From: Chloroflexota bacterium | Lineage (GTDB): Bacteria; Chloroflexota; Dehalococcoidia; UBA2979 | Reading direction: 5' to 3' | DNA: 29,437 bases | NCBI GenBank assembly: GCA_009843585.1 | Contig: VYDC01000247.1 | Span: 1 to 29,437 of the forward strand | Shown here: positions 16,369-23,323 of the stretch, piece after piece | Numbering within the stretch: the stretch's first letter is position 1 | Layout: the number at the start of each line of letters is the position of its first letter | The notes under the pieces: model-generated | Seen by the model: the letters and a program-made list of their open reading frames with translations, nothing else | The model's database searches: none | Told to the model about the DNA's origin: nothing | Made by a program: the position numbers and the translations under genes

Positions 16369-17808
16369 TCAGCCGATGCCGTCCGCCACGCGATAGTCGG
16401 GGGCCAGGATCTCGTAGTTGGTGGCGACCTTCAGATCCGACAGCCGGGAGAGGATGCGCGGCTCCAGGTCCCCGCCCTCGCGCGCGGCCCCTGTGCGCGG
16501 GGCCGTGCGGCGGCCCCGGCTGCGGCGCGGCTCGGCGGAGGGCTCGGAGGGGGCGGGCTCGCTGTTGCGGGTGACGACCGTCGCCATGCGGCCGAGGTAG
16601 CGGTGGTTCAAGAGCTGGTAGAGCTTCTCCTCTGCCCACGGGCTTGAGTGGTGCGCGCCCAGGTCGTCGAGCACCAGCAGCGTCACGTCCTGGAGGCGGC
16701 GGAAGATCTGGGCGGAGCTCTCGCCGGCCTCGGGCGCGTAGCCCGCGCGCAGCTCGTCGAGCAGGTCGGGCACGGTCGCGAAGCAGACGCTGTCGCCCGC
16801 GGCGATGCGGTCGTTGGCGATCGCCGCGGCGAGGTGGGTCTTGCCGCATCCGGGCCCGCCCTGCAGCACCAGCCAGCCCTCGGGTCGCTCGGCCCACTGG
16901 CGCGCGAGCCGGAAGGCCCCCTCGAGGTTGCTGCGTTGCTGGCCCCGGAGACCGTGACCCCCCGGCCGGAAACTCTCGAAGGTCATGGGGGCGAGGCGGT
17001 CGGCCGACATCCCGCCCACCGCGACGTAGCGCGGGAGCGCGGACTGCTCGAGGTCGAGCACCTGCGCGTGCTGGGGGTCGGTGAGGCGCGCCCCGATGCG
17101 GGGGTCGATCTCGGCGGGCGGGCCGACGCAGGTGAAGATCGTCGGCGCGAGCGCGTTGAAGCGGTGCGCGACCACCTGGAAGAACTTCTCGCGGGCCCAG
17201 GGCGTGCCGGCGTAGGAGTCGAGATCGTCGAGCACGAGCAGCGGGGCGCCCTGCACCTCGGCGAGGAGAGCGTCGTAGCCCAGCTCCGCATCGTCAGCGT
17301 AGGCGGCTCGCAGCCGGTCAAGCAGGTCGGCGACGGTGAGGAAGAGCGCGGGGCGCCCCTCCTCGATGGCGTGCATGGCGATCGCGGCGGCGAGATGCGT
17401 CTTGCCGCAGCCCGGCGCGCCCGTGAGCACCAGCCAGCCCTCCGGGCGCTCCGCGTAGCGTCTCGCCGCCTCGACCGCCGCCCGGTAGCGTTCACGCGCC
17501 ACCGGATCCGAGGCGCGGCCACCCTCAAGCAGCGTGCCGAAGGTGAAGCGGGCGAGAGAGCCGAGCCGCGAGTACCGCAGGAGCCGCTCCCGCCGGGCGC
17601 GCTCGTCCTCGCGCGCGGTGCACGGGCAGGGCTGCGCGCGCCCGAAGGCGGGGTGTGCGGGATCGGCGGTCACCCGCACGAAGCGCGCGCCGTCGCAGAG
17701 CGCGCAGACCGGAGTGCCGGTGTTGCCCTCCGGGTCGGCGTCAGGGCCAGGAGCGGCGGACGACTCGCCGGTACGGGTCGCCCCCAGGATCTCGCTCAGC
17801 GCCCGCAT
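16369..17808 (-). CDS. DnaC/DnaI/IstB-like ATPase with N-terminal Cys motif and two tandem AAA+ domains; probable helicase loader
   Basis: CALC..CPC; Walker A GAPGCGKT (17421-17398) and GGPGCGKT (16860-16837); Walker B LLVLDDL twice; RIGARL/RILSRL. AGGAGG RBS. Downstream of dnaB and the DnaD-like gene. Confidence 0.88.
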   Translation of the reverse strand: MRALSEILGATRTGESSAAPGPDADPEGNTGTPVCALCDGARFVRVTADPAHPAFGRAQPCPCTAREDERARRERLLRYSRLGSLARFTFGTLLEGGRASDPVARERYRAAVEAARRYAERPEGWLVLTGAPGCGKTHLAAAIAMHAIEEGRPALFLTVADLLDRLRAAYADDAELGYDALLAEVQGAPLLVLDDLDSYAGTPWAREKFFQVVAHRFNALAPTIFTCVGPPAEIDPRIGARLTDPQHAQVLDLEQSALPRYVAVGGMSADRLAPMTFESFRPGGHGLRGQQRSNLEGAFRLARQWAERPEGWLVLQGGPGCGKTHLAAAIANDRIAAGDSVCFATVPDLLDELRAGYAPEAGESSAQIFRRLQDVTLLVLDDLGAHHSSPWAEEKLYQLLNHRYLGRMATVVTRNSEPAPSEPSAEPRRSRGRRTAPRTGAAREGGDLEPRILSRLSDLKVATNYEILAPDYRVADGIG

Positions 17809-18511
17809 CGGTCCCCTCCTCTCCGCGCCCCTCGACCTCCCAGCGCCTCAGCACCGCCTCCGCGTACGCCCACGAGCGCGCGTTGTGGAGCGCCGCCAGG
17901 CGAAGGGCGTCCTCGATCCAGCCTTCCGGGTAGCGAGCCTCGGCCTCGGCCAGCGCCGCCGCCACCGCCGGGGTGATGAGCCCGATCTCGGGCTCGTAGA
18001 CCGCAACCGCGCCTGCGGGATCCGCCGGGTGCTCCGGGCCGGCGGCGACCCCGGCTCCGGCGCGCCATCCGCTCGGAGCGGGCGGGGGGGTGAGCGCGCC
18101 CGCGAGCAGGCGATCGCGCTGCCTGCGCCCGGCCGGCGAGTTCATCAGGTAAAGCAAGTCGCCGTCCGGGAGCTCCACGGCAAGCATCGAGCCGCGGTCG
18201 GCAACCCGCGAGAGCGCGGCGCCGGCGGCGCTCTCGGCCTCGCCGGGCGCGAGACGCTCGAACTGCCGGAGAAGCGGTCGCTCCCGGAGCAGCTGCGACC
18301 GCCTCACGCCGAGCACGGGTCCCGGCCGCACGGCTGCGGCCAGCGCGTAGAGCGTCGCGCGCAGCTCGCCCTCCTCCTCGATCCGGGGCAGGAGCGCAAC
18401 GAAGAGCTCGCGCGGCAGCGCCACCGCCGGCGCCCCGGCCTGGAAGCCCGGGAAGCGCGGCGTCGGCGGCGCGGCGCCCGGGGCGGCCGAGCGCGCGCGG
18501 CGCGCGTTCAC
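17741..18511 (-). CDS. DnaD-domain (DnaB_2) replication protein (256 aa)
   Basis: N-terminal FPGF..LPRELF..LLPRI...ELRATLY; C-terminal YEPEIGLITP..YPEGWIEDALRLA...NARSWAYAEAVLRRW. GTG 18511 overlaps the dnaB TGA. The 3' end overlaps the next gene by 68 bp. Confidence 0.82.
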   Translation of the reverse strand: MNARRARSAAPGAAPPTPRFPGFQAGAPAVALPRELFVALLPRIEEEGELRATLYALAAAVRPGPVLGVRRSQLLRERPLLRQFERLAPGEAESAAGAALSRVADRGSMLAVELPDGDLLYLMNSPAGRRQRDRLLAGALTPPPAPSGWRAGAGVAAGPEHPADPAGAVAVYEPEIGLITPAVAAALAEAEARYPEGWIEDALRLAALHNARSWAYAEAVLRRWEVEGRGEEGTDAGAERDPGGDPYRRVVRRSWP

Positions 18512-19944
18512 CACCCGTCGCCGCCGGAGGTCGGCTCCTCCGCCCGCAGCAGCAGGTCCTGGAAGGAGGCAGTGCTGCTGACGAAGCGCACCGACACCGA
18601 CCCCGTCGGCCCGTTGCGATGCTTCGCCACGATGACCTGGGCGATGCCCGTGGGGTGCTGGCTCCCGGGGGCCTCCGGGTGCTGGCGCTGCCACTCCTCG
18701 GGCTTGAGGTAGACGTCCTCGCGGTAGATGAACATCACGACGTCCGCGTCCTGCTCGATGGAGCCCGACTCACGGAGGTCGGAGAGCATCGGGATGTGCG
18801 GGGTGCGCTGCTCGACCGCGCGCGAGAGCTGCGCCGCCGCGATCACCGGCACCTGCAGCTCGCGCGCCATCTCCTTGAGCGACCGGGAGATCTGGCTGAT
18901 CTCGCCGGCTCGCGTGTCGGCGCGGCCGCTGCCGTGCAGCAGCTGCAGGTAGTCGACGACGATGAGGTCGAGCCCGACGTCGGCCTGCAGCCGCCGTGCC
19001 TTCGCGCGGATCCCGGGGACGGAGAGGACCGGCGAGTCGTCGATGTAGACGGCGGCGCCGCCGAGCACGCCGATGGCGTGCATGATCTGCCCCTCCTCGC
19101 GCTTCGTGTGCGTGCCGAGCCGGAGCCGGCTGGACGTCACGTCGGCCTCGGCGGAGAGCAGCCGCGCCGCGAGCTGCTCTCCGGACATCTCGAGCGAGAA
19201 GAGCGCCACCGTCGCGTGCTGCCCGACGGCGGCGTTGCGCGCGAAGTTCAGGAGGAGCGCCGACTTCCCCACGCCGGTCCGGGCGGCGAGGATGAGCAGG
19301 TCGCCGCGCTTGAAGCCGCCGAGCAGCCCGTCGAGATCCATGAAGCCGGAGCGCACGCCCTCGACGAGCTGGCCCTCAACCTCCTCGCCGGGGTCCTCCA
19401 GGAAGTGCTCGATCAGCTCACGCAGGCGGTGAAAGTCGCCCGCTGCCTCCGCCGACCGCACCCCGAGCAGGAGCGTCTCCGCCTCGGCCAGGACGCGGGA
19501 GACGTCGGGCCCCCCCTCGAAGGCCCGCTGTGCGATCTGCGAGGCGGCCTGGATCAGCCGGCGATAGAGCGCGTCGCGGGCGACGATGCGCGCGTGCGCC
19601 TCCACGCCGAGCGCCGTGAAGTGCTTCCCCTGAATCTCGGCGAGGTAGGGCTCGCCGCCCGCGGCGTCGAGGCGTCCGTCGCGCTCGAGCTCGTGCGCGA
19701 GCGTGGTTAGCGTGACGGGTTCGGAGCGCCCGCTGAGCGCCTGCGCCGCCTCGTAGCACCAGCGATTCTGCTCGCGGAAGAAGTCCTCCGGCTGCACGAT
19801 CGGGAGCACGCGGGCGAGGGCGCTGTCGTCCAGCAGGAGCGCCGCGATGACGGCCTCCTCGGCGTCGATGTCATGCGGCGGCAGCCCGCTTGAGCGGGCT
19901 TGTGCGTCCGGCCACAGAGCGGGCGGACGCCTCTCCGTGACCAC
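18508..19944 (-). CDS. dnaB: Replicative DNA helicase
   Basis: PPHDIDAEEAVI, SGFMDLD.LLGG, AARTGVGKS, FSLEMS, VDYLQL, AQLSRAVE, SDLRESGSIEQDAD, KHRNGPTG. No intein. Confidence 0.97.
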   Translation of the reverse strand: MVTERRPPALWPDAQARSSGLPPHDIDAEEAVIAALLLDDSALARVLPIVQPEDFFREQNRWCYEAAQALSGRSEPVTLTTLAHELERDGRLDAAGGEPYLAEIQGKHFTALGVEAHARIVARDALYRRLIQAASQIAQRAFEGGPDVSRVLAEAETLLLGVRSAEAAGDFHRLRELIEHFLEDPGEEVEGQLVEGVRSGFMDLDGLLGGFKRGDLLILAARTGVGKSALLLNFARNAAVGQHATVALFSLEMSGEQLAARLLSAEADVTSSRLRLGTHTKREEGQIMHAIGVLGGAAVYIDDSPVLSVPGIRAKARRLQADVGLDLIVVDYLQLLHGSGRADTRAGEISQISRSLKEMARELQVPVIAAAQLSRAVEQRTPHIPMLSDLRESGSIEQDADVVMFIYREDVYLKPEEWQRQHPEAPGSQHPTGIAQVIVAKHRNGPTGSVSVRFVSSTASFQDLLLRAEEPTSGGDGW

Positions 19945-19947
19945 GGG

Positions 19948-20580
19948 TCAGCTCGAATCGCTCTCCGCCGCCGCAGGCGCGGCGTCGTCTGAGGTCCCCG
20001 ACTCCGATACGCCGTCGGTGCTCGGCGCCTCCACGGAGGGCTCTTCCTGGTCGGCGACGGCTTCGTCCTCCTCGGCCGCCCCCGAGGCGACGTGGAGCAT
20101 CGCCTCAGCGGCGGCCTCAACGCCTTCCGGCGCCTCGGAGTCCACCACCACCACCTGCACGTCCGGCACCACGTTGCGTGAGAGCCGGAGCGGCACGGAA
20201 TACACCCCCACGCTCCGAATCACCTCGGGCAGAAGGACGCGACGGCGGTCCAGTTCCTCGCCGAGAATCTCCCCAGCCTTCTCGGCGAGGTCGGCACTGG
20301 TAACCGATCCGTACAGACGCCCCTGCTCGCCGACGCGGACGGCCATTACGAGCGCGTGCCCCCTGAGCCGGCTAGCCAGCTCCTCAGCACCCTCGTCCTG
20401 GGCCCGTTGGCGCCTCTCCTCCTCGCGGGCGAGCTCTTCGGCTCGCTCGAGAAGGGAGGCGGTCGCCGGTGCGGCCAGGCCGCGCGGCAACAGGAAGTTC
20501 CGGGCGTACCCATTGGCGACGTTCTTCACCTCGCCCATGGTGCCGGACCCCTCCACGGTCTCCAGGAAAACGACCTTCAC
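19948..20580 (-). CDS. rplI: 50S ribosomal protein L9 with ~60-aa acidic tail (210 aa)
   Basis: (M)KVVFLE.V.G.G..GEVKNVANGYARNFLLPRGLA, GRLYGSVT. GTG start at 20580. Confidence 0.96.
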   Translation of the reverse strand: MKVVFLETVEGSGTMGEVKNVANGYARNFLLPRGLAAPATASLLERAEELAREEERRQRAQDEGAEELASRLRGHALVMAVRVGEQGRLYGSVTSADLAEKAGEILGEELDRRRVLLPEVIRSVGVYSVPLRLSRNVVPDVQVVVVDSEAPEGVEAAAEAMLHVASGAAEEDEAVADQEEPSVEAPSTDGVSESGTSDDAAPAAAESDSS

Positions 20581-20667
20581 CTCGACGCACCCTCTCGGCG
20601 TATCGAAGCCGGGACGCCGCCCACGGTAAGGCGGGAGTCCGGCACCCTGCGCCCCTTTGGCGCCCTC

Positions 20668-20743
20668 TTGTCCACGCTCGCGTCCACAATCGGCGGGAGT
20701 GGAAACGCCCGCACCGTGCCCGGCGTGGATGTCCGGTGGAAGA
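20668..20743. promoter_or_regulatory. Cluster of five DnaA-box-like TCCAC 9-mers
   Basis: Plus strand: TTGTCCACG (20668), GCGTCCACA (20680). Minus strand: GTTTCCACT (20706-20698), ACATCCACG (20732-20724), TCTTCCACC (20743-20735). Confidence 0.4.
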
Positions 20744-20749
20744 GCGATC

Positions 20750-20778
20750 AGCGTAGCGCCGAGCCGTGGCCCGAGCAA
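20750..20778 (-). promoter_or_regulatory. Candidate proximal sigma70 promoter (P2) of the rplI-dnaB operon
   Basis: TTGCTC (20778-20773), 17-bp spacer, TACGCT (20755-20750). Confidence 0.5.
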
Positions 20779-20835
20779 CGCGCCGCTCGCCCTGGTGCCG
20801 CACCTCCTCCGTTTCCGGGGGCAGTCGTGCAAACC

Positions 20836-20864
20836 ATGCTAGAACGTGTGTTCTACACCGTCAA
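20836..20864 (-). promoter_or_regulatory. Distal sigma70 promoter (P1) of the rplI-dnaB operon
   Basis: TTGACG (20864-20859), 17-bp spacer, TAGCAT (20841-20836). Confidence 0.8.
20840..20855. promoter_or_regulatory. LexA (SOS) box, GAAC-N4-GTTC type
   Basis: Perfect palindrome TAGAAC-GTGT-GTTCTA filling the P1 spacer and touching the -10. It matches the Gram-positive/Dehalococcoides LexA motif. Confidence 0.8.
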
Positions 20865-20890
20865 CCCCGTCGCCCGCGGTGACCTGCACC

Positions 20891-20985
20891 GGCCGTCGAG
20901 CGGGGGTGGCGGCGATTGTCCGATCGGAGGCGTGCGGCCGTGACAGAAGAACGGGTACAGGGGGAGGCACCCCCGCTCGACGGCC
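20891..20985. repeat. 95-bp element bounded by perfect 18-bp inverted repeats
   Basis: GGCCGTCGAGCGGGGGTG (20891-20908) and CACCCCCGCTCGACGGCC (20968-20985), 59-nt spacer. Confidence 0.85.
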
Positions 20986-21034
20986 TAGACTCGCTCCTCC
21001 CCGCCCTAGAGGCCCCCGACCTCGAATGCGGGAG

Positions 21035-23323
21035 CTACTCACCGAGCGCGCGCGGCAACCCCTTCTCGTAGCCGTCGCGGAGCGAGTCGCACGCGACGTC
21101 GAGCGGGCCGAGCCGCAGGCGCGGCTCCTCCTCGACGACGACCTCGCCGAGGGACACGGCCGTCACGTCGGCCTCGCGCGCGAGGGCGAGCACCGCCGCG
21201 AGGGCCTCCGCGTCCGCGACGCCCACCAGTAAGCGCGAGGGCGCCTCTCCGAAGAGCGCGGCGTCGAGCCGGGGGCCGAGATCGAGCGCGGGATCGGGCA
21301 CAAAGCCCGCCCCCGGCGCAGAGTGGCCGGTGGCGGCGAGCAGGCACTCGGCGAGCGCGACGGCGAGGCCGCCCTCGGAGAGATCGTGTGCGGCGGTGAG
21401 GAGGCCGCGCCGGTGCGCGTCGAGCACCACCCGCTGCACTGCGCGCTCGCGCGCGAGGTCCAGCTGCGGACGGCCCGCGAGGCGGGCGTGCGCCCGCGCG
21501 AGGTACTCGCTCCCGGCGAGCGTCGCCGCCTCCTGCGCGGGCGGAGCTCCGAGAAGCACCAGCAGATCGCCGGGGCCCGGGCCGATGGTGAGGTGGCGCT
21601 CGACATCGGCGAGAAGTCCGAGCATTCCGATGGTCGGCGTCGGCGGCACGCCGCCCCGCGGCGTCTCGTTGTAGAGCGAGGCGTTGCCGGAGACGACCGG
21701 CGTCCCGAGCGCACGCGCCGCCTCCGAGAGCCCGATCACCGACTGCTCGAGCTGATACGCCACCTCCGGACGCTCCGGGTTGCCGAAGTTCAGGCAGTCG
21801 GTGAGCGCGACCGGCTCGGCGCCCGTCGCGACGACGTTGCGCGCCGCCTCGGCAACGGCCATCTGCGCGCCGGTGCGCGGATCGAGCGCCACGAAGCGCG
21901 CGTTGCAGTCGGTCGCCACGGCGATCCCGGCGCGCATCCCCGGGACGCGGATCACGGCGGCGTCGCCGCCGGGAAGGACGACCGTGCCGTTGAGCACCTG
22001 ATGATCGTACTGCCGGTAGATCCAGGCCCGGCTCGCGATGTTGGGCGCGGCGAGAAGCGCGAGCAGCCACTCGCCGGCGGCCGCCGCGCCGGATGCCGCG
22101 AGGTCGGGGAGCGCCGCGAGATCCTCGGCCCACAGCCGATCCAGCTCCGCGGGGCGACGCGCCTCCGGCGGATAGAGCGGCGGATCCGTCAGCACGGAGA
22201 CGGGAATGCGCGCCTCGGCGCCACCGTCGGCGTAGACCGTCGCGCGCCCGTCCGCGGTCACCTCGCCGACGACGTCGGCGCGCAGCTCCCACCGGCGCAT
22301 CAGCGCGAGCACGTCGTCCAGGTGCTCGCGCTTCGGAATGACGAGCATCCGCTCCTGCGACTCCGAGAGCATCACCTCGTAGGCGCTCATGCCGCGCTCG
22401 CGCCGCGGGACCCGACCGACGTCGATGACGACGCCGGTCCCGGCGCGCGCGGCCGCCTCCACACTGCTGGAGGTGAGACCGGCGGCGCCGAGGTCCTGCA
22501 GGCCTTCGATCCAGTCGGCGTGCCGCTCGGCGAGTTCGACGCAAGCCTCCATCAGGAGCTTCTCCATGAAGGGATTGCCGACCTGGACCGCCGGCCGCTG
22601 TGCGCCGGCGTCCTCGTCGAGCTCGACCGAGGCGAAGGTCGCACCGTGGATCCCGTCGCGGCCGGTATCGGCGCCGACCAGGACCAGCGGGTTCCCGACG
22701 CCCCGAGCCGAGGCGGAGAGCAGCTGCTCGCGGCGGCCGACGCCGACGCACATGACGTTGACCAGCGGATTCCCGTCGTAGCCGGGGTCGAACTGCACCT
22801 CACCCCCGACGGTCGGCACGCCGACGCAGTTGCCGTAGCCGCCGACGCCCGCGACGACGCCCTGGAAGAGGTGACGGTTGCGGGCGTCGTCGAGCTCGCC
22901 GAAGCGGAGCGAGTCGAGCAGGGCGACGGGACGCATCCCCATCGCGAAGATGTCGCGGAGAATGCCGCCGACGCCGGTCGCCGCGCCCTGGTAGGGCTCC
23001 ACGGCGGAGGGGTGGTTGTGGGACTCCATCTTGAAAACCGCGACCCAGCCCTCGCCGAGATCGATGGCCCCGGCGTTCTCCTCGCCCGCACGGGTGAGAA
23101 CGCGCGGCCCCTCGGTCGGGAAGTGGTGGAAGAGCGGGCGCGAGTGTTTGTACCCGCAGTGCTCGGACCAGAGCGCGGCGGCCATCCCGAGCTCGACGGG
23201 AGAGGGGTCGCGGTCGAGCAGGCGGCAGAGCCGCTCGTACTCGCCGCGCGACATCGCGACGCGCCGGAGCGTCTCGTCGCTCACCTCGCCCGGGGCTGCG
23301 CGGCGCGGGCCGTCCTCGCTCAT
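21035..23323 (-). CDS. purL: Phosphoribosylformylglycinamidine synthase subunit PurL (762 aa)
   Basis: WSEHCGYK, GEENAG, FKMESHNHPSAVEPYQGAATGVGGI.RD, TGRDGIHGATFAS, DLGAAGL, SESQERM, QYDHQV, LNFGNPE, HDLSEGGL. Start at MSEDG (ATG 23323). Confidence 0.97.
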   Translation of the reverse strand: MSEDGPRRAAPGEVSDETLRRVAMSRGEYERLCRLLDRDPSPVELGMAAALWSEHCGYKHSRPLFHHFPTEGPRVLTRAGEENAGAIDLGEGWVAVFKMESHNHPSAVEPYQGAATGVGGILRDIFAMGMRPVALLDSLRFGELDDARNRHLFQGVVAGVGGYGNCVGVPTVGGEVQFDPGYDGNPLVNVMCVGVGRREQLLSASARGVGNPLVLVGADTGRDGIHGATFASVELDEDAGAQRPAVQVGNPFMEKLLMEACVELAERHADWIEGLQDLGAAGLTSSSVEAAARAGTGVVIDVGRVPRRERGMSAYEVMLSESQERMLVIPKREHLDDVLALMRRWELRADVVGEVTADGRATVYADGGAEARIPVSVLTDPPLYPPEARRPAELDRLWAEDLAALPDLAASGAAAAGEWLLALLAAPNIASRAWIYRQYDHQVLNGTVVLPGGDAAVIRVPGMRAGIAVATDCNARFVALDPRTGAQMAVAEAARNVVATGAEPVALTDCLNFGNPERPEVAYQLEQSVIGLSEAARALGTPVVSGNASLYNETPRGGVPPTPTIGMLGLLADVERHLTIGPGPGDLLVLLGAPPAQEAATLAGSEYLARAHARLAGRPQLDLARERAVQRVVLDAHRRGLLTAAHDLSEGGLAVALAECLLAATGHSAPGAGFVPDPALDLGPRLDAALFGEAPSRLLVGVADAEALAAVLALAREADVTAVSLGEVVVEEEPRLRLGPLDVACDSLRDGYEKGLPRALGE

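Follow-up and report, generated by a model that had tools for sequence, protein, structure and literature searches.

A predicted LexA operator within a conserved promoter of the replicative helicase operon in sponge-associated Dehalococcoidia

The replicative helicase operon of an uncultured, sponge-associated Dehalococcoidia bacterium is preceded by a promoter, P1, whose spacer holds a perfect palindrome (positions 20856-20841) that is very probably a LexA operator. Judging from the sequence, we consider it likely that this operator is functional and that it lies in a strong sigma70-type promoter driving the genes of the ribosomal protein L9 (rplI), the helicase (dnaB), a DnaD-like protein and a tandem DnaC-like protein. 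Three things that can be read in the genomes compared here appear to carry this interpretation: the anatomy of the region, the association of the motif with SOS genes in the same genome, and its deep conservation. From them we infer the binding of LexA, the repression and induction of P1, and a benefit for fork restart.

The window, i.e., the whole stretch of DNA analysed, is an entire 29.4-kb contig of a metagenome-assembled genome (MAG) of 2.09 Mb, with 73% G+C and 74% completeness. The bacterium is a high-GC member of the Dehalococcoidia distinct from Dehalococcoides itself, and the sequencing runs that contain the stretch are for the most part sponge metagenomes.

The operon and its distal promoter

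On the minus strand, purL is followed by a terminator-like hairpin, P1, a leader of ~250 nt, rplI, dnaB, a DnaD-like open reading frame (ORF) and a gene for a tandem IstB/DnaC protein:

Ending at 21035, minus strand: purL (Pfam).
20953-20972, minus strand: terminator-like hairpin past purL, with a 6-bp stem and a T-rich tail.
20859-20864, minus strand: -35 element of P1, TTGACG, from the promoter scan; its TTGAC is invariant in the 23-member family alignment.
20841-20856: predicted LexA operator (SOS box), TAGAAC-N4-GTTCTA, TAGAACACACGTTCTA, a perfect 16-bp palindrome.
20836-20841, minus strand: -10 element of P1, TAGCAT, from the promoter scan, with a 17-nt spacer and a predicted start near 20829.
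19948-20580, minus strand: rplI, ribosomal protein L9, with a GTG start at 20580 (Pfam L9_N and L9_C).
18508-19944, minus strand: dnaB, replicative helicase (Pfam DnaB and DnaB_C, E 5e-94), 3 nt past the rplI stop.
17741-18511, minus strand: weak DnaD-like ORF (PF07261, E 0.0026, 17.8 bits, below the cut-off of 22 bits), overlapping the dnaB stop by 4 nt.
16369-17808, minus strand: putative helicase loader with two tandem IstB/DnaC-type AAA+ domains (PF01695 in two stretches, E 2.3e-34).

The hairpin at 20972-20953 divides purL from the control region of rplI. Downstream, dnaB lies immediately 3' of rplI in all 24 of the other relatives' loci matching dnaB, and the two genes that come after it (16369-18511) are probably carried on the same SOS-/DnaA-controlled transcript, since stop and start codons overlap. 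The GTG start of rplI was set by the alignment of relatives. A longer L9, corresponding to a 294-aa ORF from a TTG at 20832, was rejected: the Pfam L9 domain begins only at residue 85 of this ORF, the open frames of relatives end just before the conserved GTG, and the conservation upstream of the GTG shows no codon pattern. At the other end of the protein, past L9_C, L9 carries an acidic, low-complexity tail of ~60 aa, rich in Ala, Glu, Asp and Ser (19948-20140, minus strand); RNA contigs of other strains cease aligning there, which suggests that the tail is variable.

The promoter scan of positions 20300-21300 called P1 as the only promoter-like sigma70 site, against a mean of 0.0 in shuffled sequences, and a scan of the same interval found nothing resembling a terminator between P1 and rplI. 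An earlier note on this DNA had placed the palindrome exactly between the TTGACG and TAGCAT hexamers, with a second promoter-like element devoid of a box 86 bp further downstream. The palindrome and both hexamers are indeed present where it had put them, on the minus strand, and so is the second element. The palindrome does sit inside the spacer, beginning 3 nt past the -35; the word 'exactly' is slightly loose, since its final two bases are also the first two of the -10. It covers approximately -27 to -12 of P1 and thereby overlaps core promoter elements, as exclusion of the RNA polymerase by LexA would need. Within the window, AGAAC-N4-GTTCT occurs once at up to one mismatch, against 0.16 expected occurrences. 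From the operator to the start codon of rplI there are ~260 nt, and another putative promoter (P2, see below) lies in between.

LexA and its motif in this genome and in its relatives

The earlier note presupposed a LexA protein, and the genome encodes one (contig C33), composed of a wHTH domain (PF01726) and an S24 domain (PF00717). The residues for self-cleavage can all be recognized, namely the AIA-AG (Ala-Gly) site, the serine of a GDSM motif and the lysine of an LKR motif, and the closest solved relative of the protein is the LexA structure 3k2z (PDB). The gene is cut at the end of its contig, whereby the first ~20 residues and the promoter of lexA itself have been lost. In Dehalococcoides ethenogenes, which belongs to the same class as our MAG and differs from it in G+C content (~47-49% versus 73%), LexA reportedly binds GAAC-N4-GTTC.

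We searched the whole assembly for this GAAC-N4-GTTC motif. The nine sites found are not an argument by their number, which we discarded as evidence: ~12 were expected from base composition, and palindromes with permuted half-sites, used as controls, occurred from 1 to 55 times. Since the bare 12-mer is not over-represented, the case rests on flanks, position and conservation. A/T flanks are present on five of the nine sites, as compared with zero to two for each of 11 control palindromes with permuted half-sites. As for position, seven sites precede gene starts; of the other two, one falls within a cadherin-like gene and one is either inside a KhpB/Jag gene or immediately 5' of it. Among the genes preceded by a site are recA, uvrA and ruvB, as well as one of two PolIII-alpha genes, the one with the weaker score, probably of the dnaE2 type. 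The scan proposed in the earlier note had been expected to recover recA, lexA and uvrA; it returned recA and uvrA and, in addition, ruvB and this dnaE2-like gene. When the -35 was included in the pattern (TTGAC-N3-8-GAAC-N4-GTTC), only recA and rplI were retrieved genome-wide. We also trained a weight matrix (PWM) on the operators of recA in 27 relatives, excluding the genome under study. Of all sites in the assembly, that of rplI scored highest with it (29.2 bits), and behind it came recA (21.5 bits) as well as uvrA and ruvB.

Other SOS boxes with high scores (25.1, 20.2 and 22.8 bits, at C173:705, C69:11224 and C208:3528 of this assembly, G000) were located, respectively, upstream of an RCC1-repeat gene, upstream of a glycerate kinase gene, and at the KhpB/Jag (KH-R3H) gene just mentioned. 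These three genes may be non-canonical members of the SOS regulon.

Conservation was assessed upstream of rplI in relatives. Of 25 family genomes, 23, representing 21 genera, have a TTGAC, a box and a TAnnnT 237-296 nt before rplI, such that the box inside P1 on which the earlier note relied has been kept across the family. The core of the box is exact in 15 of these 23 genomes and has one mismatch in the other eight. All eight genomes with a one-mismatch core possess another box, AGAACAnnnGTTTGACA, which overlaps the -35 and occurs in 16 genomes in total, and the same two boxes stand before rplI in a further set of named MAGs that overlaps with the family genomes. Over the first ~95 columns of the family alignment, the only conserved positions are TTGAC, the G.AC and GTTCTA half-sites, and the final T of the -10. 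RNA polymerase makes no sequence demands on a promoter spacer, which is where the half-sites are located, and their conservation therefore points to a bound factor. In 27 family genomes, the recA promoter exhibits the same layout as P1, TTGAC-N-GAAC-N4-GTTCTA.

Outside the family, four of ~16 genomes from other families of the class have such a box in a promoter upstream of rplI. The arrangement is absent from two low-GC members of the family (L033 and L036) and from most of these other families, and no box was found upstream of rplI in the sampled low-GC members of the class L100, L101 and L105.

The upstream box (box 1), present in most members of the family (loci L015-L035 and L042-L058), lies ~20 nt upstream of the spacer box (box 2), and its right half-site, GTTT, runs into the -35 TTGACA. 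In the genus of the window, four of the five sampled members, including the window itself, do not have box 1, and their single box 2 is more perfect; going by the aligned promoters, this loss suggests that operators have turned over while the regulatory link as such was conserved. The lexA promoters of the family (L107-L135) have their own arrangement, with two adjacent, slightly degenerate boxes, G(T/A)AC-N4-GTTC followed by GAAC-ATAT-GTGC/GTAC, and no single perfect one.

The leader between P1 and rplI

Three further elements were recognized in the leader:

20750-20778, minus strand: P2, TTGCTC-N17-TACGCT, read from the sequence, with a predicted start near 20743 and no LexA box.
20668-20732, minus strand: DnaA-box cluster, with conserved columns TGTCCACG, TGTGGAC and TGGAYAAGT.
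20589-20615, minus strand: nearly invariant 27-nt 5'UTR element, including the ribosome-binding site GAGAGGG.

The -10 of P2 is 86 bp downstream of that of P1. The match of P2 to consensus is poor (three of six positions in each hexamer), and the promoter scan did not call it. In the family alignment, 22 of 23 members have TTGC-N17/18-TA(C/A)(G/C)CT at the corresponding place, and the element claimed in the earlier note is thus also kept in relatives. We accepted it as a conserved element because the relaxed pattern used in the search, TTG[CT]-N18-21-[TC]A-NN-[CT]T, has a low chance rate of ~0.014 per sequence. Its sequence is most simply read as that of a promoter.

RNA-library contigs from four sponge or marine studies map to rplI and its leader. 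Two of them, from different sponge studies, span 20590-20810 and 20647-20812 and bridge both the -35 and the -10 of P2, so that the transcripts from which they derive would start upstream of P2; they stop ~20 nt before reaching position 20829, at which transcription from P1 is predicted to start. The beginning of rplI is itself bridged by a third contig (20261-20726). These contigs are a weak hint that P1 is in use, with transcripts running toward rplI, as assembled contigs carry no information on start, strand or level and may include DNA carry-over. They do not cover the end of purL, the positions upstream of 20812 or dnaB, a lack of cover that is not readable as absence or end of a transcript.

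P1 and its box might govern only a short leader transcript, such as a small RNA or an attenuated leader, in which case the operon would depend on P2, or on a start closer to rplI, and would not be SOS-inducible. We regard this as unlikely. The length of the leader (~250 nt) would suit such a transcript, as would the GC-rich hairpins of varying sequence that occur past the predicted P1 start (20779-20829, minus strand) in most relatives; these are predicted folds in GC-rich DNA, and they may otherwise act as a 5' stabilising stem-loop. Moreover, none of the RNA contigs connects 20812 with the body of rplI on its own: in X17 the pieces overlap by only 10 nt, and in X18 a gap is left between them. 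Against this, terminator-like sites are absent from the interval between P1 and rplI, and an Rfam scan of 20300-21300 with E values up to 1 detected no family, meaning that the interval has no known leader or riboswitch. The sequence between P1 and P2 is not conserved in the family. The spacing of P1 and rplI has been kept over 21 genera, jointly with the linkage of rplI to dnaB.

The DnaA boxes between P2 and rplI are ACATCCACG at 20732-20724, TTGTGGACG at 20689-20681 and CGTGGACAA at 20676-20668 (reverse complement TTGTCCACG); the conserved TGTCCACG is in forward orientation and TGTGGAC and TGGAYAAGT are in reverse. When up to one mismatch to TT(G/A)TCCACA was allowed, a single box was retained in the leader, as compared with one box per 26 kb over the genome. 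These sequences suggest control or titration by DnaA at the helicase operon. We discarded an origin of replication (oriC), given that the boxes are few, that the stretch read has no AT-rich segment, and that dnaA is 44-96 kb from the rplI locus in four near-complete relatives; this distance indicates that the boxes are regulatory or titrating.

It is very unlikely, in our opinion, that the region is mainly DnaA-controlled, as a promoter, titrating cluster or origin, with a LexA box that is secondary or non-functional. Such a role would agree with the three box positions conserved in the family downstream of P2, with the helicase and loaders encoded by the operon, and with the origin-proximal location implied by the 44-96 kb to dnaA. 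However, dnaA is not adjacent and has boxes in its own flanks, the leader keeps a single box at up to one mismatch, and no AT-rich unwinding segment accompanies it in the stretch read. DnaA control leaves unexplained both the conservation of GAAC and GTTC in the P1 spacer and the top rank of the site with the recA-derived matrix, and it is, in any case, compatible with control by LexA. That the palindrome is a chance sequence or the site of another regulator, merely resembling an SOS box, is highly improbable: the bare 12-mer is about as frequent as base composition predicts and some high-scoring sites precede non-repair genes (RCC1-repeat protein, glycerate kinase), but against this stand the excess of A/T-flanked sites over controls (five versus zero to two), the placement of seven of nine sites upstream of a gene start, the four canonical SOS genes among the targets, the layout identical to the recA promoters of 27 relatives, and the conservation of the site in the family.

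Just 5' of the rplI start, the 27-nt element reads GTCCCGGCT(C/T)CGA(C/T)ACGCCGAGAGGGT. It is nearly invariant over 21 genera, the L9 proteins of which are only 51-75% identical to that of the window, and is a possible L9 or translational operator. RNAalifold, applied to the last 80 nt of the leader, yielded only a 4-bp hairpin with unconvincing covariation.

Proposed regulation and comparison with known SOS systems

Taking the palindrome as a LexA operator, a scheme for the regulation of the operon can be proposed, which follows the suggestion of the earlier note that P2 would serve basal and P1 damage-induced expression. In undamaged cells, a LexA dimer at approximately -27 to -12 would block the access of RNA polymerase to P1, and the basal supply of the operon would come from the weaker, box-free P2 and perhaps also from a gene-proximal start. 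Upon DNA damage, RecA would stimulate the self-cleavage of LexA, whose cleavage residues are all present, and P1 would be freed. Reading through from P1 would then provide more helicase and loader proteins, with L9 being co-transcribed, and might favour the restart of forks. Through the DnaA boxes downstream of P2, the replication initiator would probably act as a second input. The genome also encodes PriA. It is possible, if on the doubtful side, that the whole control region works as a conserved hub with three inputs, i.e., LexA on P1, the DnaA boxes behind P2, and the 27-nt 5'UTR element. If so, the supply of DnaB, the DnaD-like protein, the tandem-AAA+ loader and L9 would be tied to damage, to the status of the initiator and to a third signal.

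Textbook SOS regulons comprise functions in repair, recombination, translesion synthesis and cell-division arrest, and the replicative helicase is not normally included. Promoters combining basal and regulated starts are known from Escherichia coli: uvrB has tandem promoters, with LexA occluding P2 and a DnaA box acting on P3, and dnaA has the tandem promoters p1 and p2 with a DnaA box between them. The likeness of these E. coli promoters to the region described here is functional only, as the genes, the phylum and the LexA motif (CTGT-N8-ACAG in E. coli) are different.

A closer precedent is found in Mycobacterium tuberculosis, where dnaB (Rv0058) has an SOS box in its promoter and is damage-inducible in a partly RecA-dependent manner; this box is weak, narrowly below a stringent ChIP-seq threshold, and dnaB also responds to PafBC (PMC3381160, PMC8151990). 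In both cases, the promoter region of the helicase gene contains a LexA motif of the GAAC-N4-GTTC type. In contrast with the mycobacterial site, the one described here is a perfect palindrome, the best of its genome, and occupies the promoter spacer exactly as in recA; in addition, its predicted target is rplI-dnaB together with putative loaders, from a position ~260 nt upstream and with a second promoter-like element and DnaA boxes in between. In the LexA regulon as given by the Streptomyces venezuelae LexA regulon paper, dnaB is not included.

The Gram-positive-type SOS (Cheo) box is TCGAAC-N4-GTTCGA in mycobacteria and similar in Bacillus subtilis (PMC3381160). P1 resembles the recA and lexA promoters of this type in its core motif and in having the operator between -35 and -10. 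It differs from them in its target, an operon for a ribosomal protein, helicase and loader instead of a repair gene, in the A/T flanks of the box (AGAAC...GTTCT as opposed to TCGAAC...GTTCGA), and in the presence, in most relatives, of a tandem pair of boxes, one covering the -35 and the other the -10.

The earlier note had considered the arrangement its best candidate for an undescribed system. We cannot follow it on this point: P1 has the features of an ordinary LexA-operator promoter with an unusual target, for which M. tuberculosis dnaB offers a precedent (PMC3381160, PMC8151990). This is the extension of a known mechanism and not a new one, and what is noteworthy is the target and the strength of its conservation. 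The best predicted LexA operator of the genome belongs to the helicase operon and has been kept in 21 genera, which argues that an increased supply of helicase and loaders after damage is a selected trait in these bacteria. Seen beside this family, the weak and disputed signal of M. tuberculosis dnaB looks less of an oddity. For a group without genetics, the putative combination of a LexA-gated P1, a box-free P2 and DnaA boxes would constitute a concrete and testable promoter architecture.
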